This document shows positions 5,090-49,930 of a DNA stretch of 64,000 nucleotides, piece after piece; the first letter of the stretch is position 1, and the number at the start of each line of letters is the position of its first letter. The notes below the pieces were generated by a model, which had not been told where the DNA came from, ran no database searches, and saw nothing but the letters and a program-made list of their open reading frames with translations. This DNA comes from an uncultured Gammaproteobacteria bacterium (GTDB taxonomy: Bacteria; Patescibacteriota; Patescibacteriia; Magasanikbacterales; UBA922), in the NCBI GenBank assembly GCA_964522435.1, contig CAZFUL010000001.1, positions 117,075 to 181,074 on the forward strand, given 5' to 3'. Both the position numbers and the translations under genes were made by a program.

Positions 5090-5255
5090 GTTTCGTTATC
5101 GTCGTATTTCATAACAGCAGCTATTGCCTGTTATTATGAAAACCGACGAGTCGTGTGTTACGACTTACGGTCCAGCGGCATTCCTGCCGCGAGCTGCTAT
5201 AACTGACCCAAGCAGTGTAAATAAATGGGTCCCCGTGGCATGAAGGAGAATACCC

Positions 5256-5516
5256 ATGCCCAATCCCGGTGAAACCCCCAGCACCCCTGCCACCACCTCC
5301 ATGGTGGCGCCCGTCCAGCCGGCCGCCGAGGTGCAGCCGGATCTGGCGTCTGTCGCCCCGGCCGAAGAGCCCCCCACCGTCACGGCGGTGGCCTCTGATA
5401 CCGACGGTAACGGGCTCACCGACCGCGTCGTCATGACCGGGGGGGGGATCATCCCCCTGGGAATCGCGGGAGGGGGGTCCCGTCCCGATCGTCCCCGGAT
5501 GCGCGGTAGCAACTAG
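5256..5516 (+). CDS. Possible small Pro/Ala/Gly-rich protein in a very GC-rich islet (uncertain coding)
   Basis: AAGGAG lies 8 nt upstream of the ATG. The region is over 70% GC and has long ORFs in several frames, so the coding call is weak. Confidence 0.2.
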   Translation: MPNPGETPSTPATTSMVAPVQPAAEVQPDLASVAPAEEPPTVTAVASDTDGNGLTDRVVMTGGGIIPLGIAGGGSRPDRPRMRGSN

Positions 5517-5789
5517 CCCCTCGGCGGGACCTCTTTATATGTACGCGTTCTGCGTATAAAGAGTTCATCTTCTGAACGCAGCACCTGGCCGGTCGCGCTT
5601 TTATAAGCGACCCTGCACAAGCGCTTGACTGTCATCCTCTGACATTCGCGCGACCGGCCCCACAAAAAAGTACATCAATAGTGGTGTGCTTTTTTGTTTT
5701 TATGAGGAATACACTGATATGTAACCAAATTGAATTAAAGGAAAAATAATGATAGTCTAACAAATGAAATTGTATTTAATCGTATTATT

Positions 5790-18785: not shown

Positions 18786-18876
18786 TGGCGGAAGGTGAGG
18801 GATTCGAACCCTCGATACCCTTTCAGGTATACCACCTTTCCAAGGTGGCGCACTCGACCAACTATGCGAACCTTCC
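18786..18876 (-). tRNA. tRNA-Ser (anticodon GGA), class II with long variable arm, CCA encoded
   Basis: Manual cloverleaf: acceptor GGAAGGT/ACCTTCC, D-stem GCA/TGC, anticodon stem CCACC/GGTGG with loop TTGGAAA, variable arm ATACC-TGAAA-GGGTAT, T-arm GAGGG-TTCGAAT-CCCTC. Confidence 0.85.
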
Positions 18877-22477: not shown

Positions 22478-24994
22478 ATGATCAATCAAACTTTTTTCCC
22501 GCTTCGTCCAGAAGCTAAACCAACAATATATGTGTACAGATTCAAAGGTGTTAATACGCATGAAGGTCTTCTGAAAATTGGATATACTACGAGAAATGCT
22601 AAAGATCGTATCGCTGAACAGCTCACTACGAGTCGCCTTGAGCATGAAATTATTCTTGAAGAATCGGCGATGAGAAATGATGGTACTGCGTTTAGTGATC
22701 ACGATGTACATAGATATTTACGAAAAAACAATATTGAGCATGTAAATGGTGAGTGGTTCCGCTGTACGCTCAAAGATGTGAAATCTGCACTTGTAGCTAT
22801 TAAGTCCGGTGCCTTGAATGTAGAAAATAGAACACAGACTTTTGGTCTTCGCCCAGAACAAGAAAAGGCTATAGAAAAAACAATTACCTATTTCAAAAAT
22901 GTTAAAAAAGAAGGTGATAATAAAACACCACACTTCTTGTGGAATGCAAAAATGCGTTTTGGGAAAACATTTACTTCGTACCAGCTTGCAAAGAAAATGA
23001 ATTGGAAACGAGTACTCGTACTCACATTTAAGCCAGCAGTACAAAATGCGTGGGAAGAGGATCTCAAATCCCATGTTGATTTTGAAGGGTGGCAGTTTAT
23101 CTCACCAAATAGTCTCTCATACGAAGACGCTGATAAAGATAAACCACTTATTTGTTTTGGTTCATTTCAAGATTATCTGGGAAGAAACAAAAGTACAGGT
23201 GGTATTAAAACCAAAAATGAATGGGTACACACAACAAATTGGGACTGTGTCATCCTCGACGAGTACCACTATGGAGCGTGGAGAGAAAACGCAAAAGACT
23301 TGTTTGAGGCTGAAGAAAAACGTGTACAGCAAGATGAAGAGGGGGAAGGGCTTGAGTACTTTAGTGAAAGTGAAATGCCTATTACTACGGGGGCGTATCT
23401 GTATCTGTCGGGTACACCGTTCCGTGCGATTGCATCTGGTGAATTTATCGAAGAGCAAATTTTTAACTGGACATATTCAGATGAACAGCGTGCCAAAGAG
23501 CTGTGGCAAGGGGAGAATAACCCCTACGCATCACTACCTCGCATGGTGATGATGACCTATCAATTGCCCGATACTATTCGTGAAATTGCAATGGGTGGAG
23601 AGTTCAACGAGTTTGATCTCAACCTCTTTTTTTCAGCAGATGGGAAAGAAGAGCAAGCTCGCTTTACCTATGAAGATGAAGTTCAGAAATGGCTTGATCT
23701 GATTCGTGGGTCGTTTCAAGAGACAACAATTGATAACTTGAAACTTGGTGCAAAAAAACCACCACTTCCATTTTCTCATGCTCCGTTGCTGAGTGTATTG
23801 ACTCACACATTTTGGTTTTTACCGAGTGTGTCCTCTTGTTATGCGATGAAGAATCTACTCCAATCGAGACAAAACAAATTTTATAATGACTATAAAATCA
23901 TAGTAGCCGCAGGTAACAAAGCAGGGCTTGGTGCAGATGCACTCGAGCCTGTAGTCAAGGCGATGACACCTCCGCTTGAAACAAAAACAATTACACTCTC
24001 ATGTGGAAAATTAACGACGGGTGTTTCGGTAAAACCATGGACGGGTATTTTTATGTTGCGAAATTCTTCTAGTCCTGAAACATATTTTCAAGCCGCTTTT
24101 CGTGTACAGACACCATGGACGATCAAAAATCCAGACGGTAAGTCTCCTGATGAAGAAATGATACTCAAAAATGAGTGCTATGTGTTCGATTTTGCACCTG
24201 ATCGCGCGCTCCGACAGATTGCTGATTATAGTTGCCGTTTGAGTGTAGGGGACAAGAACCCAGAACAGAAAGTAGCAGAGTTTATCCATTTTTTGCCCGT
24301 TCTTGCGTATGATGGGAGTGCGATGAAACAGATTGATGCGGCTGGTATCTTGGATATGGCGATGAGTGGAACGACAGCGACACTGCTCGCTCGTCGTTGG
24401 GAAAGTGCCCTACTTGTAAACGTCGACAACTATACACTCAAACGCTTGATGGACAATGAAGATGCGATGAACGCCTTGATGAATATCGAGGGATTCCGCA
24501 GTCTCAATGCTGATATTGAAACGATTATCAACAAGTCAGAGGCTGTCGAAAAAACAAAAAAAGAAGCAAATGATAGAGAACTCACCAAAAAAGAAAAACA
24601 AGAACTCTCTGAGCAAGAAAAAGAGTATAAGATCGTGCGTAAACAGATTCAAGAGAAACTCATCAAGTTTGCTACTCGTGTGCCTGTTTTCATGTATCTG
24701 ACAGATTATCGTGAGAGAACTCTCAAAGATGTGATCACCCAATTGGAGCCTGGACTATTCAAAAAGGTCACTGGTTTAAGTGTGAAAGACTTTGAACTGC
24801 TAGTAAGTCTCAATGTGTTCAATAGTGCCCTCATGAACGATGCTGTATATAAATTTAAGCGATACGAAGACGCTAGTCTTAGTTATGCTGGTATCAGTAA
24901 GCACGAAGGAGAAAGTATTGGTCTGTACGACACTGTGATTCAACGAAGTGAGTTTGATCAGGTGTTTGAGAATACGGTAAAGTTGCAAACGTAA
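22478..24994 (+). CDS. T5orf172 (GIY-YIG-like) domain fused to ResIII / SF2 DEAH helicase (838 aa): putative restriction/translocase subunit
   Basis: N-terminus IYVYRF...GLLKIGYTTRNAKDRIAEQL...GEWF (T5orf172 hallmarks). LRPEQEKAI with Walker A FGKTFTS and motif II ILDEYHYGA. About 400-aa C-terminal region of unknown function. Confidence 0.75.
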   Translation: MINQTFFPLRPEAKPTIYVYRFKGVNTHEGLLKIGYTTRNAKDRIAEQLTTSRLEHEIILEESAMRNDGTAFSDHDVHRYLRKNNIEHVNGEWFRCTLKDVKSALVAIKSGALNVENRTQTFGLRPEQEKAIEKTITYFKNVKKEGDNKTPHFLWNAKMRFGKTFTSYQLAKKMNWKRVLVLTFKPAVQNAWEEDLKSHVDFEGWQFISPNSLSYEDADKDKPLICFGSFQDYLGRNKSTGGIKTKNEWVHTTNWDCVILDEYHYGAWRENAKDLFEAEEKRVQQDEEGEGLEYFSESEMPITTGAYLYLSGTPFRAIASGEFIEEQIFNWTYSDEQRAKELWQGENNPYASLPRMVMMTYQLPDTIREIAMGGEFNEFDLNLFFSADGKEEQARFTYEDEVQKWLDLIRGSFQETTIDNLKLGAKKPPLPFSHAPLLSVLTHTFWFLPSVSSCYAMKNLLQSRQNKFYNDYKIIVAAGNKAGLGADALEPVVKAMTPPLETKTITLSCGKLTTGVSVKPWTGIFMLRNSSSPETYFQAAFRVQTPWTIKNPDGKSPDEEMILKNECYVFDFAPDRALRQIADYSCRLSVGDKNPEQKVAEFIHFLPVLAYDGSAMKQIDAAGILDMAMSGTTATLLARRWESALLVNVDNYTLKRLMDNEDAMNALMNIEGFRSLNADIETIINKSEAVEKTKKEANDRELTKKEKQELSEQEKEYKIVRKQIQEKLIKFATRVPVFMYLTDYRERTLKDVITQLEPGLFKKVTGLSVKDFELLVSLNVFNSALMNDAVYKFKRYEDASLSYAGISKHEGESIGLYDTVIQRSEFDQVFENTVKLQT

Positions 24995-25259
24995 TACTTT
25001 GTAGAATATTTTGAAATAATCCATATTAGAGAAGCTTAAAGACATAACCGATGGTACAGAAAAAAGGGATTTAAGTGAATTACATGAGACTATCAAGCCA
25101 AAGTTCCCCAGCTATATCCCTTGGATGATGGCAGCCATTTTAACTGCTGTAATTTTTTGTATAATTTTCTTAATCTATTATTGCAACAAGTAAAATTTTC
25201 ATTACATCCGACAACAGAGACTTTGTTGTTCAATTTATTAAAATAAAGGATAAAAAATC

Positions 25260-25640
25260 TTAGCCTTTCTTGAAATCGTTTCTTCCGACAATAAGTGAAA
25301 TCAATATTGCTGCAGATAATATGAGTCGATACCATACTGTGGTGCCTACTTGTGACAGATCGAGTAGGTGTGTTACTAACCCAAGGCTTACAAGTATTAA
25401 ACCAAGTGTATAAGCCCAATGTTTTGCTTTGAGCAAAAAACAGCCGATCAAAATACCTATAACGGCGGATATAATGTTGATGATTTGGGTCAACTCATTC
25501 GCCGTAGCTTGGAGACTTTCTGGTTCTATGGATGAGGGAGAACTTGTTAGATTTGTGAACGTGACAATCAAATTAATCAATCCTGCTATCATGAAGAGGC
25601 CTGCAGCAACTTTGATAGGGGAGGAAAGAGTATTACTCAT
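25260..25640 (-). CDS. Hypothetical small polytopic membrane protein (126 aa)
   Basis: Hydrophobic segments. ATG ORF on the minus strand between the helicase gene and the mrr cassette. Confidence 0.5.
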   Translation of the reverse strand: MSNTLSSPIKVAAGLFMIAGLINLIVTFTNLTSSPSSIEPESLQATANELTQIINIISAVIGILIGCFLLKAKHWAYTLGLILVSLGLVTHLLDLSQVGTTVWYRLILSAAILISLIVGRNDFKKG

Positions 25641-25676
25641 ATGGGTATAGTTACTATCTGCATTTTTTATATATAA

Positions 25677-25765
25677 ATCATAGCAAATATAGTACGAAAC
25701 ACAAACCTTTGCTATACTTTTTTTAGTATATCCTAGTATTATGCCCCCCTCAATTCCCTACACCC
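25677..25765. repeat. Direct repeat copy 1 (about 89 bp) flanking the mrr cassette
   Basis: Near-identical to 26748-26838 with 1-2 mismatches. Contains the palindromic tatac-T8-gtata element and the first codons (MPPSIPYTL) of a truncated copy of the YgjP-like gene. Confidence 0.8.
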
Positions 25766-26653
25766 TTAAGTTTCTTCAAAAAAGTCTTCGTCTATTTCTT
25801 TTACTTCGTATTTATTTTTAACTTGTAACCCCACTCCATATTCGTGCATTAAATCAACAAGTTTTTTGCCGTCAATGAGTATTATCGAATGATGTGCCTC
25901 TCTTGCTTTGTGTATGGCAGATTCATCGAAAGAAGAAGTCGTGACAAAAACTCCTTTACTTGTATCTCCGCTCATTGCTCCTATAAAATTACGAATCTCT
26001 TTTTCTCTTATTTTATTTTCATTATAACGCTTAGCTTGGATATATATTTTTGCTAGGCCTAATTTGTCTTCGTTAATAATACCATCTATTCCTCCATCAC
26101 CACTTTTCGAAGTTTCGATAAAATCTCCGTAGCCCATCTTATTTAATAGTAGCAAAACAACTTTTTCAAAATAATAAGGGTCTATTTCTTTAAGTCTTTC
26201 GAGAAGCTCATTTTTGACTTGCTTTTCAATAGCACTAAATCCCGAGTCAATCATATCTTGCGGAGAAGCATTTTCATCTTCCAAATCTATTTCAGAATCT
26301 TTTTCTTCTTTTTTTGCTTCCCTATGCGCTTGAAAATCAGGATCGTTAATTAAATCTGATAATGTTAAATTTCCACTCTTTACAACTTTTAAACCTTTTT
26401 CCGATATTTTTACCATCGCTCTTTCTGGTTGTTCAATCATTTTTGCCTGTTTGAGATATGCTTTTCCCCAGCCAATTCTATTTAATATTAGAATGTCTCC
26501 ACTCTTCGTCTTTTTTTCTAATAATTCTTCGCTCAAATTTGAATAATATTCATCCCGAACACGCTTTCGTAATTCGTTGTAATGTAAAATTTGACCATCG
26601 CTCAGTACGTTTAATATTGGTATAAATGTTTCGTGATATTTTGGTAGATCCAT
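25766..26653 (-). CDS. mrr: Mrr-family restriction endonuclease (type IV, modification-dependent)
   Basis: N-terminal winged-helix Mrr_N and C-terminal Mrr_cat motifs GDGGIDGI...IQAKRY. 295 aa. Confidence 0.8.
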   Translation of the reverse strand: MDLPKYHETFIPILNVLSDGQILHYNELRKRVRDEYYSNLSEELLEKKTKSGDILILNRIGWGKAYLKQAKMIEQPERAMVKISEKGLKVVKSGNLTLSDLINDPDFQAHREAKKEEKDSEIDLEDENASPQDMIDSGFSAIEKQVKNELLERLKEIDPYYFEKVVLLLLNKMGYGDFIETSKSGDGGIDGIINEDKLGLAKIYIQAKRYNENKIREKEIRNFIGAMSGDTSKGVFVTTSSFDESAIHKAREAHHSIILIDGKKLVDLMHEYGVGLQVKNKYEVKEIDEDFFEET

Positions 26654-26747
26654 ATTTTTGAGTTAATTTATCAATATTTTGCTTTTTTAAAAAATTTTTA
26701 TCATAAAAAAAGCGTATTTAATATAACTTACTTTTACCCAACCTTAT

Positions 26748-26838
26748 AAATCATAGCAAATATAGTACGAAACACAAACCTTTGCTATACTTTTTTTAGT
26801 ATATCCTAGTATTATGCCCCCCTTAATTCCCTACACCC
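26748..26838. repeat. Direct repeat copy 2, carrying the promoter and start of the YgjP-like gene
   Basis: See copy 1. The ATG of ORF 26814 lies inside the repeat. Confidence 0.8.
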
Positions 26839-27374
26839 TGAAAAAAAACGCTAAGGCTAAGTACCTGCGTATTGTTATTAATAGGGATGCCACTGTTTCT
26901 GTGGTGGCGCCAACACGGGTGAGCATGAAAGAAATAGAACAATTTATTGCAGATAAAACACTGTGGATACAAAAGCACGTGAGAGCGTTTCAAAAAAAGA
27001 AAGAAGCCGTAACCCCCGTACTTCCTGTAGGGTTTTCTCGTACAGACTACCATTCCTGCGTGGCACGAGCCAGAAAATTAGTAAAAGATCGCTTGGCACA
27101 TTTTAATGCTATCTATCAATGTCATTTTGCTCGGGTGAGTATAAAAAAACAAAGCACGGTGTGGGGGAGTTGCTCGGCAAAAAAGAATTTGAATTTTAAT
27201 TATAAAATAGTCTTATTACCCCCACATTTAGCGGATTATATTATTGTGCATGAACTCTGTCATTTGAAAGAAATGAACCATGGCAAACAATTTTGGTTGT
27301 TGGTAGCAAAAACAATACCCGAACATAAACAATATAGAAAAGAATTAGTGGCCTATGAAAGATATTTTTCTTAA
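26814..27374 (+). CDS. DUF45 / YgjP-like metal-dependent hydrolase (HExxH)
   Basis: HELCHLKEMNH zinc-binding motif near the C-terminus. 186 aa. Confidence 0.7.
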   Translation: MPPLIPYTLKKNAKAKYLRIVINRDATVSVVAPTRVSMKEIEQFIADKTLWIQKHVRAFQKKKEAVTPVLPVGFSRTDYHSCVARARKLVKDRLAHFNAIYQCHFARVSIKKQSTVWGSCSAKKNLNFNYKIVLLPPHLADYIIVHELCHLKEMNHGKQFWLLVAKTIPEHKQYRKELVAYERYFS

Positions 27375-27383
27375 TCTGTTTTT

Positions 27384-28127
27384 ATGACCATGCAACTGTT
27401 GGGTGTCTTTTTTGTTGGCCTCGCCGCGAGTTTTTTAAGCGGTATTGCGGGAGGTGGCGCTGGGCTTATTACCATTCCCTTATTAATATTTTTAGGAATT
27501 GATCCAAAAATTACCGCAGCAACAACTACCTTTGGGGGATTAGGATTGGGGATAGGCGCGTTGTTTCGCTTTCGTAAGGAAAAAAATTTACGAAAACAAT
27601 ATAGTAAACCTTTCACTCTTATTTCTATATTTGCCGGATTGTGTGGACCCTTTATATTATTTTTCTTAGAGAGTAGTTGGGTAAAAATCGTTGTGGGTTC
27701 TATTATATTACTTATTGTTCCTTTGTTTTTGTTAAAGAAAAAGATTGGAACAGAACAAAAAGAAACAAGTCAAAGAAAAAAAATTATTGGCTATCTCTTG
27801 TATGCGTTGCTGTTAACCTTGCAAGTGGCCTTTGGCTCTGGGATTGGCATTGCTATCATTTTTGTCTTGGTGGCATTTTTTGGGCTTACCTTAATAGAAA
27901 CAAGTGCAACATTACGGTTACCACAACTGGTTTCTTCTTTTATCTCTCTGTTTTTATATGGCTATCAAGGATTATTAGATTATCGTTATGGAATAGTGCT
28001 TATGCTTGCGATGATTTTGGGAGGGTATCTGGGTTCTCATGTGGCAATAAAAGCGGGTAATGCGGTTATTCGCTGGGTTTTTGCTGCTATGGCAGCGATC
28101 CTCGCGGTAATCTTGTTGATTCAATAA
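27384..28127 (+). CDS. TauE/SafE (TSUP) family membrane transporter
   Basis: GIAGGGAGLITIPLLIFLG repeat motif. Polytopic. Confidence 0.75.
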   Translation: MTMQLLGVFFVGLAASFLSGIAGGGAGLITIPLLIFLGIDPKITAATTTFGGLGLGIGALFRFRKEKNLRKQYSKPFTLISIFAGLCGPFILFFLESSWVKIVVGSIILLIVPLFLLKKKIGTEQKETSQRKKIIGYLLYALLLTLQVAFGSGIGIAIIFVLVAFFGLTLIETSATLRLPQLVSSFISLFLYGYQGLLDYRYGIVLMLAMILGGYLGSHVAIKAGNAVIRWVFAAMAAILAVILLIQ

Positions 28128-28131
28128 AACA

Positions 28132-28164
28132 AAAACCCTATACCGTTCTGGTACAGGGTTTTTG
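28132..28164 (+). terminator. Rho-independent terminator (ccctgtacc.../ggtacaggg + T-run)
   Basis: aaaaaccctataccgttctggtacagggttttt. Confidence 0.55.
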
Positions 28165-28238
28165 AATTGCTCCGACGGGGGTGGGGAACTGCCGAAGCAA
28201 TTCATCCGCGTCGTCGGGGCGGAACTCCTTGTTTGTCG

Positions 28239-28760
28239 TCAGGGGGTCCCTGTATTGTACGGGTCAAGGAAGATGAACCGTTCTTCTTTGGGATAGTACC
28301 CTGGGTATACCGTCCAGACCGTGAAGTGCCATTGCTGGTTGCGCTCTTTGCGCATCCGAACTTTCATGGTGAGTTGGGTAGTTTTTGGAGCCAGGATGAG
28401 CTCCTTGGGGAGGACGGGAATCCCGGATGACGGCCTTCTCAGCTGCTGTTGCAAGTATGGCTGGGTGGGGACACGGGTCACCCAGCCAATATGGCGGGGA
28501 AGACTCAGGGTGATCGAATGATCTTCTTTACCCCGTTCAATTGCGCTGCGCAGGGCCGCGCCCAAGTGTGCAGCAACCTCTTGGTCATCGACGCAGGCTT
28601 GCAGGTTTGGCCAGGCAGAAATATTTCCGGCCAGTGGAGCGCCTGCCAGACGGAAATGGTCAGTTTGTACCTGGACTATGGTCTCGTGGGGAAAGATGAC
28701 CTTGACCACCGGTGCGCCGTCCGGTCCCATAGGAAGGATCAGATATTTGGCGAAAAGCAT
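28239..28760 (-). CDS. Hypothetical protein (173 aa) in GC-rich islet C
   Basis: RBS aaggaa upstream of the ATG on the minus strand. GC about 55%. The + strand ORFs here are shadow ORFs. Confidence 0.45.
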   Translation of the reverse strand: MLFAKYLILPMGPDGAPVVKVIFPHETIVQVQTDHFRLAGAPLAGNISAWPNLQACVDDQEVAAHLGAALRSAIERGKEDHSITLSLPRHIGWVTRVPTQPYLQQQLRRPSSGIPVLPKELILAPKTTQLTMKVRMRKERNQQWHFTVWTVYPGYYPKEERFIFLDPYNTGTP

Positions 28761-28772
28761 GAACGTTTCCTT

Positions 28773-29375
28773 TCAGTTGTTGTGTTTTTTGTTCATGTGG
28801 CGAATTGCGATTGCCACACTGCCGTTGCCCATCACCCCGATGAGGATGGGGTGTACGAGGGATACCAGTTGTTGCTCTGGCTGCCAGTGGATGACCAGGT
28901 TCGTAGTCATGATCATATACGACACCACCGCAATGTACCAGGGCAAGATGTTTTCTTTGTTGCCTTTGAGTACACCGAGGACGGTGGGAATGAACGATAG
29001 CACATATACTGCTTGAAGCAGCAAGTTGGCCATTACATCATCACCGCTGGTACGCCAGTAGTAGACAATGACGCCGGCGATTGCCAGAATCATCCATTCT
29101 GTTGGCCCGATTTTGCTAAAGCGCTTGTTGAACGCTGCGTAGCCAAGGATCAAAAGCGATCCGAGGCATGCTGCGCCAGTTGCTGCCCAGCGGCTCAGGT
29201 CACCATCTACCACTTTGAAATAGGTGACTGAGTTGACCACATTGACGCTGCCCCAAATTGCCCAGGTTGCGGCGTTTGGGGTGATATTGCCCTTGATCAC
29301 GTAGTACAGGTACATGCTGAGCAAGAGTAGCACACCCGACATTGAAATGAGTGAAAGAATATCAATGAGCGCCAT
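28773..29375 (-). CDS. Hypothetical polytopic membrane protein (about 200 aa) in GC-rich islet C
   Basis: RBS aaggag 6 nt upstream of the internal ATG (MALIDIL...). The longer ORF to 29429 was rejected as an upstream extension. Confidence 0.45.
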   Translation of the reverse strand: MALIDILSLISMSGVLLLLSMYLYYVIKGNITPNAATWAIWGSVNVVNSVTYFKVVDGDLSRWAATGAACLGSLLILGYAAFNKRFSKIGPTEWMILAIAGVIVYYWRTSGDDVMANLLLQAVYVLSFIPTVLGVLKGNKENILPWYIAVVSYMIMTTNLVIHWQPEQQLVSLVHPILIGVMGNGSVAIAIRHMNKKHNN

Positions 29376-29427
29376 TGCAGGCTCCTTTGTCTGACGTTTT
29401 TCTTGGCAGAGACTAGAATAGAACATC

Positions 29428-30288
29428 ATGATTTTAATCAGTTGTCAATATAGCGTATGTATGGGAAAATATTCGTATATGCGTGATACCACACACAACA
29501 GAGCATGGGTACGAAACATCGGTATTGTCTGTTTTATTTTTATCCAATTCTTGGGAATTGCCATTAATCTTATAAAGCAGCAAGATTGTTATAAACAAGA
29601 GCAGTCCATAGAGCAACAGTTTTCCAGCAGGCAAGAAGGAGATGTTCGTGTATTAAAAGAAGATATGCTCAATCATTTTGATTGTGGCATGTCGTTTGGC
29701 GTGCCTGCGCCTATTGTCTATGTCAAAGATGATACAGGCAGTGTTGGGGTATTGCCTCAAAGTATTGTGTTTAATATTGTGCTCTATGCTGCCGTTTTTT
29801 TTGCGGTTATGCGTGGGTATGCCTTGTTCAAACAACAGCGCTATACGCGTGTAGGTGTGGAAAGCATATTGTGTATTGTGGGATTGTTTATTGCTGCTAT
29901 ATTATTGCAATTATCGTTTCGGTATAGTGGGCTTATGTATACCGGAGGGCCTGTAATACGATTTCCTTCGTTGATACCATCAACACAGTCGTTTGTGGAT
30001 ATAGGGGCTGAGTATGTGTTTTATGTTCTTACTATGCTTGCCGCAGGATTTTTTTCTGTATATACCTGGTATGGTTATGCGGCAATTATTTTTTTATATC
30101 TTGTATTATTTGGAATCGTTGTATACCGGATACAAAAAATATATATACCACTCTCATATAAAAAATTGTTGACCTGGGGAATTGTTGGATTTATTTTTTT
30201 CTATCTTTTTATGTCGTATAGTGCGTTTATTACGCAAGGGGTGGTTGATCTGAATTGTTTACATAACAATAGTGGTTGTGACGGCTAG
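29428..30288 (+). CDS. Hypothetical polytopic membrane protein
   Basis: ATG ORF with multiple hydrophobic segments. Start uncertain. Confidence 0.5.
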   Translation: MILISCQYSVCMGKYSYMRDTTHNRAWVRNIGIVCFIFIQFLGIAINLIKQQDCYKQEQSIEQQFSSRQEGDVRVLKEDMLNHFDCGMSFGVPAPIVYVKDDTGSVGVLPQSIVFNIVLYAAVFFAVMRGYALFKQQRYTRVGVESILCIVGLFIAAILLQLSFRYSGLMYTGGPVIRFPSLIPSTQSFVDIGAEYVFYVLTMLAAGFFSVYTWYGYAAIIFLYLVLFGIVVYRIQKIYIPLSYKKLLTWGIVGFIFFYLFMSYSAFITQGVVDLNCLHNNSGCDG

Positions 30289-32010: not shown

Positions 32011-32134
32011 CGTACATTATGGGAAGAGAAGGACAGACGATAGCAATATCTGATAGTAGCCTCTTCTCATAATCAGTAGCAATGCTGTTGCTGAACGTGG
32101 GAAGAGTAACGCTGTTGTATAGGAGGACGTTGTC

Positions 32135-32950
32135 ATGGCACCATACTTTTCTTGGCTGGTAGCGTCTGGAGTTATTGAACGAACAATGCCCGATGGAGGG
32201 GTGGTTCATGTTTCCACCTTGCCTGACGCAGCGGTGGCAGCTGCGGGCTGGTGGGGGACGGAAAATCTGCGTCCCGAGTATTGCTTGAGCGGCGGCTGCT
32301 TGTTTGATGCGCGTTGGCAGCTGCAGTTTCCTGCACAAAACAAAGGACACCAAGGCGCTGTTCGTACCTTGTCCTTGCCGCGTGAGCGCGATGATGCGTA
32401 TGCGCGTTTGAAGAAAGGACAAACGCCACTTGCCCTGCACCTGCCGAAAGGGCCTGGCGTGTATCAGCAGACGCTCATTCGCTGGCAAGCAGCGGTGTTT
32501 CGTCGCTTGCAGCCCACACAGATTCTGTACCATCTTCCGACCGATGAATATCGTGTCTACATTCAAGAGATGGAACAACATCTGGGCTATGCCGTTCCTG
32601 CTGCCTACACACAGCTTGACCAGCTCGCTGTCTCTATTCGTGCGCTTATGGTGCGGGAGTTTGGGGCTGCTCTCATGGCACGTGTTCGCTTCGTGCGTCC
32701 TATGCACACGCATGGAGTGAAAGATACGACACAGTCCTACCTGCATCCCTACTTGTTTCCGGAGTTGTATGGGATCACTCCTGCCAATACCGTTGGTGTG
32801 GAAGATCTTGTTGAACTCCGTCTTGCCTACGAAGCATGGCGCATGCGCGGACACCAGATTTCGGTGTACGCAGCTGCCCTTGCCCTGCCTCCTCCCTACG
32901 CAGATAAAACGCTGCGGCCTGGGGAATTCACGACCGTTGAGCTGATGTGA
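32135..32950 (+). CDS. Hypothetical protein (271 aa) in GC-rich islet D, strong SD
   Basis: taggagga lies 8 nt upstream of the ATG. GC is well above the flanks. The antisense ORF 31979-32854 is judged a shadow. Confidence 0.5.
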   Translation: MAPYFSWLVASGVIERTMPDGGVVHVSTLPDAAVAAAGWWGTENLRPEYCLSGGCLFDARWQLQFPAQNKGHQGAVRTLSLPRERDDAYARLKKGQTPLALHLPKGPGVYQQTLIRWQAAVFRRLQPTQILYHLPTDEYRVYIQEMEQHLGYAVPAAYTQLDQLAVSIRALMVREFGAALMARVRFVRPMHTHGVKDTTQSYLHPYLFPELYGITPANTVGVEDLVELRLAYEAWRMRGHQISVYAAALALPPPYADKTLRPGEFTTVELM

Positions 32951-33011
32951 TATACACCTCAGCTCCGGTCACCATCCCATAAATAGTTATTTTTTATTAT
33001 ACTATATCCAT

Positions 33012-48925: not shown

Positions 48926-49070
48926 TTGTGAACCTAAGAATAATTGATTGGAATTATAGTCTATGAAGAATTGAAGCAATGGAAAAAACTAAGAGAATCT
49001 TATTGACATAATTATCATTTTATGATATTGATCTCTGATCAATCAAATTTCTACCAGAGGAGGTACTCCT

Positions 49071-49463
49071 GTGCTGAATAAAATCCTGCTCATTGAAGAC
49101 GACATCGAGACAGGGATCTTGATCCGGGGGGGGCTGCAGGGCGTAGAGGATGAAAACTGGGAACCCCTGTATGACGTGTTCTACGCAACCAACCTGAACG
49201 ATGCACGGTTGCGGCTCGACAAAGGGGACATCGACCTCTTGATATCCGACACCTGCGTCGATAGCAAGAACCGGCCTGATGCCCACGTGCTGATCGAGGA
49301 GGTACGGCAACGCTACCCCAATATGCCGATTCTCGGAATGTCTAGTTCTGACTTCTACCGAGATATCATGTTGGAGGCGGGATGCAACCGCTTCTACACC
49401 AAATCACCCCGTGACCTGCAGTTCGCAGGGCTGCTGGAATTAGTGCAGGAGCTTCTGCCTTGA
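49071..49463 (+). CDS. Stand-alone CheY-like receiver domain protein, GTG start, in GC-rich islet F
   Basis: gaggagg lies 7 nt before the GTG. ILLIEDD, phospho-acceptor D in DLLISD, and T/K positions are conserved. GC is about 55% against AT-rich flanks. Confidence 0.6.
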   Translation: MLNKILLIEDDIETGILIRGGLQGVEDENWEPLYDVFYATNLNDARLRLDKGDIDLLISDTCVDSKNRPDAHVLIEEVRQRYPNMPILGMSSSDFYRDIMLEAGCNRFYTKSPRDLQFAGLLELVQELLP

Positions 49464-49564
49464 CGTAGCGACCCTCCATTTGTGAAGACTCAAAGGCAAG
49501 CGCGAGTATAAACGCTTCCAATCCCCATCCTAAAATTATTTTGAAAAAAAGTAGTTTGAGGATA

Positions 49565-49598
49565 AAAAATCACCGTTAAAACGGTGGTTTTTTATTTC
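49565..49598 (+). terminator. Bidirectional rho-independent terminator (caccgtt-aaaa-cggtg flanked by A- and T-runs)
   Basis: Seen in sequence. Confidence 0.6.
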
Positions 49599-49632
49599 TG
49601 TGACCCCGGTGGGGAATCTCACTGCTCGTGAC
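49599..49632 (-). pseudogene. Degenerate partial copy of the tRNA-Lys 3' end (variable loop, T-arm, acceptor 3' strand)
   Basis: tgtgaccccggtggggaatctcactgctcgtgacca versus the intact gtgaccccggtggggatcgaacccacgacca. About 30 nt of homology with a 7-nt insertion and substitutions. Confidence 0.45.
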
Positions 49633-49787
49633 CAGCTAAAGCGCTGGTCACTGCGCTTTGAGAAACCTTCGGGTTTCTCAATACTCATCCTCCGCAAGTA
49701 AGGGGGCGCTGCCCCCTTACCATCCCCCAATTCGATCCCCCTCGACCCAAAAATAAAACCCCCACATAAGTGGAGGTTTTATTTTAG

Positions 49788-49860
49788 TGACCCCGGTGGG
49801 GATCGAACCCACGACCATTGGCTTAAAAGGCCACTGCTCTACCGGCTGAGCTACAGGGTC
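49788..49860 (-). tRNA. tRNA-Lys (anticodon UUU); CCA not encoded
   Basis: Manual cloverleaf: acceptor GACCCTG/CGGGGTC, D-arm GCTC-AGCCGGTA-GAGC, anticodon loop CTTTTAA, T-arm GTGGG-TTCGATC-CCCAC. Confidence 0.85.
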
Positions 49861-49930
49861 ATTATTTTATAGAGAAATAATCGTTGACTATGATATACTA
49901 TAGCCTGAAAAAAGTCAATAATATTTTTCT

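Follow-up and report, generated by a model that had tools for sequence, protein, structure and literature searches.

How a short GC-rich operon came to lie in an AT-rich bacterial genome, and whether its composition tells of a recent arrival, is the question raised by a stretch of 64,000 nucleotides from an uncultured organism (contig CAZFUL010000001.1 of assembly GCA_964522435.1; called the window below). At positions 28165–29430, directly behind tauE, the window contains an islet (islet C) with an elevated content of guanine and cytosine (GC) and two minus-strand genes, named B and A. It is reported here that the B–A operon may have been acquired laterally, and that gene A belongs to a family of Patescibacteria in which a high GC content recurs from genome to genome. 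The features of the operon are as follows (window positions).

28130–28164, both strands: bidirectional intrinsic terminator common to tauE (plus) and the islet operon (minus); 15-bp stem, 5-nt loop, U-tracts on both strands
28165–28238, minus strand: GC-rich 3′ untranslated region (UTR) of the operon; 74 nt after the gene A stop, non-coding, GC 0.61
28239–28760, minus strand: gene A; its 173-aa product is soluble and a divergent member of a Patescibacteria-wide family without annotation
28767–28772, minus strand: Shine–Dalgarno (SD) sequence of gene A, AAGGAA, as read from the sequence; inside the B–A spacer
28773–29375, minus strand: gene B, 200-aa membrane protein with seven predicted transmembrane (TM) helices; predicted SWEET/PQ-loop/KDEL-receptor-like fold
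29382–29387, minus strand: SD of gene B, AAGGAG, as read from the sequence; 6 nt before the ATG at 29375
29443–29448, minus strand: perfect TTGACA, candidate −35 box of the operon promoter, proposed from sequence only

Composition and borders of the islet

The GC content of the islet is 0.531 (0.535 if it is ended at 29390), with 300-bp peaks of up to 0.587, and that of the window without its four GC-rich islets is 0.397. Compared with all 1266-bp segments of the window, the islet has a GC z-score of 3.7; the richest such segment starts at 28151. In tetranucleotide usage it is the most deviant 1266-bp segment of the 64 kb (100th percentile). Its edges are abrupt and coincide with gene boundaries: GC is 0.40 in the last 230 nt of tauE (27900–28129), 0.43 in the terminator and 0.355 in the 110 nt past the start of gene B (29391–29500). 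An earlier note on this DNA had described a jump in GC right after the tauE terminator and a drop near 29430, and both were reproduced; of its figure of about 55 % the elevation stood and the value did not, the mean being about 53 %.

Both genes depart from their host in codon usage. The GC content at third codon positions (GC3) is 0.626 in gene A and 0.652 in gene B, against 0.32–0.37 in tauE, ygjP, msrB, ligA, clpB and a P-type ATPase gene. Gene A (GC 0.559) ranks first by GC among the 55 open reading frames (ORFs) of the window, the median GC3 of which is 0.339. Under a codon-usage model of the host, for which 20 long host ORFs served as the training set, the scores were −0.22 for A, −0.17 for B and +0.11 to +0.26 for host genes. 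The 3′ UTR is non-coding and yet GC-rich, so that the compositional shift in the window is more than a codon-level effect.

Operon layout and signals

Gene B precedes gene A on the minus strand, with 12 nt between the B stop and the A start. The two ORFs had been read as an operon with SDs, and this was confirmed (AAGGAG-N6-ATG before B, AAGGAA-N6-ATG before A). The islet had also been placed directly after the tauE terminator, and folding showed the hairpin to be real; it begins 3 nt past the tauE stop codon. Its energy is −23.4 kcal mol−1 on the minus strand (z −6.0) and −20.1 kcal mol−1 on the plus strand (z −3.95). The stem is perfect and followed by a long U-tract on the minus strand and has an A–C mismatch on the plus strand, which suggests that the terminator is tuned to the islet operon at least as much as to tauE. 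The sole Rfam matches within the islet were weak, terminator-like and on the minus strand.

The islet forms a self-contained minus-strand accessory operon in the gap between the tauE terminator and the next gene start; it would be transcribed from the short AT-rich spacer at about 29376–29450, and it ends at the bidirectional hairpin. No good −10 hexamer was found 16–19 nt past the TTGACA, and a promoter scan gave no minus-strand promoter there. The 5′ UTR of the operon is unstructured (folding z +1.39).

Both cistrons are led by SD motifs, which are otherwise seldom used in this genome. No SD match of at least 4 nt precedes 38 of 45 long host ORFs, and in a stricter scan GGAGG or AGGAG was found before only 2 of 55 first starts. 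A strong SD opens one gene in each of the four GC-rich islets (starts 5256, 29375, 32135 and 49071); strong SDs thus stand at four of five islet gene starts and at about 2 of 55 ordinary host genes (Fisher p = 1.5 × 10−4), in keeping with the earlier view that they are atypical for the genome. The sampled loci of the Candidate Phyla Radiation (CPR) are likewise SD-poor, except at the A gene.

Gene A and its family

A word-indexed protein search with the A product returned only the query itself, and an exhaustive HMMER search returned 31 relatives of 174–234 aa with 28–34 % identity. Against a family profile built without it, A scored 108 bits (E = 4 × 10−32) over residues 15–155; none of 2000 shuffles and no other ORF of the window scored with the same profile. 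The protein carries the family motifs FR..AGN..W, GW, AP.T..LT and YPG, in which N46, G92, W93 and G154 are invariant. The C-terminal family motif, DxGELxGDxTxRE..VFFDWxHPG, is missing or diverged: the window protein reads YPGYYPKEERFIFLDPYNTGTP at this place, with the loop deleted and W and H replaced.

Neither A nor the family as a whole matched Pfam, NCBIfam, PHROGs, PADLOC or PDB entries, and the single-sequence AlphaFold model of A (predicted local distance difference test, pLDDT, 44) was too poor for the fold to be read. Species-representative genomes were scanned with a tight sub-alignment of the family, the full alignment being too diverse for a scan. This gave 19 loci, 17 of them labelled Patescibacteria (Saccharibacteria, Uhr-, Kaiser-, Moran- and Taylorbacteria, Parcubacteria), one 'uncultured bacterium' and one Gammaproteobacteria. 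Viral contigs yielded no relatives of A or B. In the other genomes A stands alone, its neighbours being neither conserved nor B-like; in the window it sits 12 nt behind B, without the promoter and leader that belong to the family. The family is Patescibacteria-specific and previously undescribed, and no description of it, of its leader or of a gene-specific GC excess in Patescibacteria was found in the literature. The A protein is probably cytoplasmic and would bind or process what B carries, a role suggested only by operon linkage.

A candidate leader RNA of the family

Upstream of A in other genomes stands a sigma-70-like promoter with an extended −10 (TTGACA-N17-TGgTAttaT), and then comes a leader, about 58 nt long, with the SD at its end. 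The elements of this leader are, in order, YGG/CGC - UAU - CCGUG - CCA/GCG - N2-4 - CACGG - A - CCUG - AA - CCAG - loop - CUGG - CAGGAGG; the proposed fold combines an H-type pseudoknot with a hairpin in which the first half of the SD is paired. In an alignment of only eight sequences, 93.8 % of cells were paired, against 34–40 % in slid controls; 7 of the 16 pairs showed compensatory changes, which none of 500 shuffles reached. The covariance model (R1) scored 59–77 bits in eight loci and weakly in L007 and L009 (L numbers denote loci from other genomes). Locus L032, which was fetched independently afterwards, scored 31.9 bits (E about 4 × 10−11) and added a new compensatory pair (CCUG/CAGG to CUUG/CAAG). 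Positions of the copies within their loci are given below.

L006, 5944–6001: leader
L008, 5815–5871: leader
L011, 5947–6004: leader
L015, 5505–5563: leader
L016, 5914–5972: leader
L017, 5911–5968: leader
L018, 630–688: leader
L020, 5876–5934: leader
L032, 3256–3310: leader
L007, 5900–5959: weak copy
L009, 211–230: weak copy

In its size, its H-type pseudoknot, its SD-pairing helix directly before the start codon and its covariation support, the leader is like the small H-type pseudoknot translational riboswitches (preQ1-I/II/III, SAM-II/SAM-V). Unlike them, it matches no Rfam family, permissive thresholds included, and a ligand role is only a candidate one. The leader is a candidate new cis-regulatory RNA of Patescibacteria; it may instead bind a protein or sense temperature. 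The window has no copy of it, the best R1 score there being 9.3 bits at an unrelated site, so that the window copy of A appears to have exchanged the family promoter and leader for its place behind B.

GC excess as a trait of the A family

The GC content of A exceeds the median of the other ORFs of its locus in 19 of 20 genomes, and its GC3 does so in all 20 (mean excess +0.19, up to +0.37; Wilcoxon p about 2 × 10−6). It is the most GC-rich ORF of the locus in 14 genomes and among the top two in 17. At 100-bp resolution the GC bump often matches the A ORF (L020, L021, L009, L015, L019). The GC3 of A follows that of the host (rho 0.67), and the excess persists in GC-rich hosts (L006, L022, L024, L030, L032); it is therefore not a regression toward the mean of a donor pool.

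A is found in the same place in two loci, L009:241–789 and L019:5959–6513; the sequence before it and the genes after it are homologous between the two. The neighbouring proteins are 47–63 % identical and the A proteins 40 %; the GC3 of A is 0.62 and 0.59, against 0.24–0.40 in the neighbours. Imported composition should decay by amelioration over such divergence, and that it was kept points to active maintenance or to repeated replacement at the same locus. A second syntenic pair in these loci (L009:5193–6263(−), L019:11409–12482(−)) consists of unrelated fast-evolving genes with 26 % identity, which are GC-rich in both genomes as well (GC3 0.52 and 0.56).

The synonymous shift is equal in twofold codons ending in a pyrimidine (Y) and in a purine (R), both of which move from 0.27 to 0.56, and fourfold sites are also shifted. 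Because Y-ending and R-ending codons shift equally, translational selection was discarded as an explanation of the high GC3, and the pattern argues for a general compositional force. GC-biased gene conversion (gBGC), which reportedly raises GC3 in recombining bacterial genes, is a candidate cause. The composition of A is partly a family trait and not by itself proof of recent insertion; given the family-wide excess, composition is no reliable clock here. The likeness to bacterial gBGC (Lassalle et al. 2015) lies in a GC3 that is raised at all synonymous site classes relative to the genome; the excess in the A family is larger (+0.19 on average, up to +0.37), affects one gene family and is phylum-wide.

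Gene B

B had been described as a six-TM membrane protein. A membrane protein it is, but the model gives seven TM helices in a 3+1+3 arrangement, which superpose on solved members of the SWEET/PQ-loop/KDEL-receptor (KDELR) superfamily. The predicted fold rests on an AlphaFold model from a 2-sequence alignment (pLDDT 74.6), the only full-length homolog found being Sulfidibacter corallicola WP_237377816 (25 % identity, E = 6 × 10−14). No match was obtained in Pfam, NCBIfam or PHROGs, the nearest being a sub-threshold Pfam match to YWFCY (E = 0.039) and two others at chance level; nor did the Pfam families of the clan (MtN3_slv, PQ-loop, ER_lumen_recept, MPC and others) match up to E = 10. A PDB profile search gave no match, and two metagenome scans for B homologs, one of them by a hand-built ANLLLQ-x4-LSFIPT pattern, found none. 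B differs from the SWEET/SemiSWEET/PQ-loop (cystinosin)/KDEL-receptor/MPC superfamily in this lack of a sequence match to any clan Pfam family or PDB chain, and on its modelled structure it would be a very divergent bacterial branch of the SWEET/PQ-loop fold. If the model is right, B is most likely a membrane transporter of a small solute.

In Sulfidibacter (L001:5226–6597; OZ219275.1) the gene of the homolog overlaps the end of an Asp/Glu racemase gene by 8 nt, and large nonribosomal peptide synthetase (NRPS) genes lie just upstream. This setting hints at an amino-acid-related substrate. A was considered as the counterpart of the racemase that partners the B homolog and was rejected, being unrelated to it.

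Origin of the islet

The most economical account is that the B–A cassette was laterally acquired from the accessory pool of other, GC-richer Patescibacteria; we give it an even chance. One acquisition event would account for the GC-rich B, A, spacer and 3′ UTR, for the codon usage that runs against the host and for the SDs. B, which is outside the A family, has the same compositional shift. The nearest named TauE relatives of the window are Saccharimonadales/Saccharibacteria, and the host is therefore probably a Patescibacterium. As the A family is found mostly in Patescibacteria and the TauE kin are saccharibacterial, an intra-phylum donor pool is plausible; GC-rich Patescibacteria that carry A were found (L006, L011, L022, L030, L032). 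The window copy of A, stripped of the family promoter and leader and set behind B, points to a rearranged cassette. Sharp intergenic edges, atypical codon usage, orphan genes and absence from the loci of relatives are features that islet C has in common with small horizontally acquired compositional islets.

Unlike most acquired DNA, which is AT-richer than its host, islet C is GC-richer. Several findings weigh against acquisition. The two ORFs of the islet include no integrase, transposase or recombinase by Pfam, PHROGs and NCBIfam searches, no meaningful direct or inverted terminal repeats flank it, no tRNA gene adjoins it (the nearest lie at 18786 and 49787), and neither A nor B has a viral link. 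No donor or close homolog was found, the best identities being 31–34 % for A and 25 % for B. The GC-rich CPR loci that were sampled are themselves SD-poor, so that an SD-using donor is not established. Import followed by amelioration does not predict that A is GC-rich relative to its host in every genome examined; with GC3 above the host in 20 of 20, GC-rich hosts and positional orthologs included, its composition may be maintained. A homologous islet in relatives had been named in the earlier note as evidence against insertion: none of the five relatives examined (TauE identities 69, 69, 62, 50 and 50 %) has the islet next to tauE, but these share no synteny with the window and so provide no true empty site. 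The description of the islet as an inserted foreign element is supported by composition, codon usage, 3′ UTR and SDs; a recent insertion is not proven by composition, which is partly a trait of the A family.

The closest TauE relative (L004; GCA_034680565.1, JAXOUH010029657.1; 69 % identity, on a 164-kb contig of GC 0.39) has only tauE and a cold-shock gene elsewhere in common with the window, and gene order is very fluid in this lineage. A 178-aa gene that is convergent after tauE in L026 was tried as a counterpart of A and rejected as unrelated. A genome scan with TauE gave no matches.

Alternatively, the operon, or at least A, may be a long-term resident, the GC content of which is kept up by gBGC at a frequently recombining locus or by selection on GC; we consider this possible, if rather unlikely. 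A GC3 above the locus median in 20 of 20 genomes, its persistence in GC-rich hosts and the L009/L019 orthologs are all in its favour, L030 and L032 agree, and the shift is uniform across twofold Y, twofold R and fourfold sites, as for a compositional force. Long residence fails to explain why B is also GC-rich and SD-led, why the 3′ UTR is GC-rich and why the three other, unrelated islets of the same window are GC-rich and SD-led too; moreover, L009/L019 is just one syntenic pair, in which independent replacement at one locus could have occurred.

The plus-strand ORFs opposite the operon bear on a further explanation, dual coding.

28167–28430 and 28449–29000, plus strand: antisense shadow ORFs in one frame, with a single stop at 28428–28430

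Codon position 2 of their frame coincides with that of A and B, and such a frame stays open wherever TTA, CTA and TCA are avoided in the sense strand. If a second protein were encoded in this frame opposite the A-family genes, stop avoidance in both frames would raise GC. A long antisense ORF does overlap the A gene in 14 of 19 loci, and in about 12 it covers the whole gene or almost the whole of it. Such ORFs simply end once the AT-rich flanks are reached, and neither a conserved start nor an SD belonging to them was seen; the frame is interrupted in L010, L012, L014, L016 and the window, there by just the one stop. The A-family genes contain 40 TTA, CTA and TCA codons, against 88 expected from position-3 frequencies, and compared with control ORFs of matching GC3 from these loci (about 12 vs 27) the depletion is 2–4 times stronger; much of it, however, is common to GC-rich genes generally. 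Base A is the scarcest at sense fourfold sites (0.14, against 0.27 for T), which removes T from antisense position 1, the first base of stops. The antisense amino-acid sequences are slightly more alike than in synonymous shuffles (identity 0.205 vs 0.193), a small excess that residual shared ancestry could also yield. Substitutions at sense position 3 are close to saturation (identity 0.33; expected, 0.27), so that an antisense protein would be barely conserved. In a codon alignment of 20 A-family genes pairwise identity was 0.50, 0.60 and 0.33 at positions 1, 2 and 3, which puts the annotated strand and frame of A under protein-level selection. Dual coding is accordingly regarded as improbable, and the antisense ORFs are probably shadows of high GC3, as had been proposed earlier; the minus-strand frames have homologs and third-position freedom.

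The islet could also be a chimera of the assembly, or read-through from a GC-richer contaminant of the sample, with which the singleton status of the assembly's proteins in the collection would agree. This is given almost no weight in view of the host-like sequence on both sides of the islet on a 257-kb contig, the hairpin, shared with tauE and more stable on the islet strand, at which the operon precisely ends, the family of gene A, which is typical of the host's phylum, and the four similar islets at gene boundaries in the window.

Wider meaning and other islets of the window

Taken alone, the islet is a small compositional island with two hypothetical genes, which is a common thing. What is new in it is that it is GC-rich and not AT-rich, has no mobility machinery and contains a gene with a composition that is a family trait. 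The A family, restricted to Patescibacteria and above its host in GC3 in every genome examined, offers a clean single-gene test of what keeps GC up against the universal AT mutational bias, be it import, gBGC or selection. The leader provides a candidate new cis-regulatory RNA for a phylum in which almost nothing is known of gene regulation. There is a practical warning as well: in these genomes an atypical GC content is not enough to infer recent transfer. Worth following up are the CPR-wide family with its GC3 excess, the candidate leader RNA and the association of strong SDs with GC-rich islets in an otherwise SD-poor genome.

Tentatively, A may mark a phylum-wide class of 'compositionally autonomous' genes or tiny operons of Patescibacteria, with GC held above that of AT-rich, SD-poor hosts, with strong SDs and with the canonical members under the pseudoknotted leader. 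If this were true, the force that holds GC up would be gBGC, selection on GC or the presence of an antisense gene in overlap, and the four islets of the window would be members of the class and not random imports. The other three are as follows.

5111–5711: GC-rich islet (GC 0.59) with an SD-led ORF at 5256–5516; 86 aa, rich in Pro, Ala and Thr
32081–33011: GC-rich islet (GC 0.54) with an SD-led ORF at 32135–32950; 271 aa, no Pfam match, 291-aa antisense shadow
49031–49871: GC-rich islet (GC 0.505) with an SD-led ORF at 49071–49463; 130 aa, adjoins tRNA-Lys

The possibility that the islets are copies of one another was rejected, as there is no DNA or protein similarity between them. Judged by the appearance of its sequence, the product of the 130-aa ORF looks like a response-regulator receiver domain.

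An AT-rich stretch with reversed GC skew (GC 0.28–0.33 around 25650–26850) contains a minus-strand gene for an Mrr-type restriction endonuclease (25766–26653), which adjoins the gene for an 838-aa T5orf172/MUG113 and ResIII helicase protein (22478–24994). Together, 22478–26653 has the look of an AT-rich defence islet in its own right, immediately upstream of ygjP–tauE.

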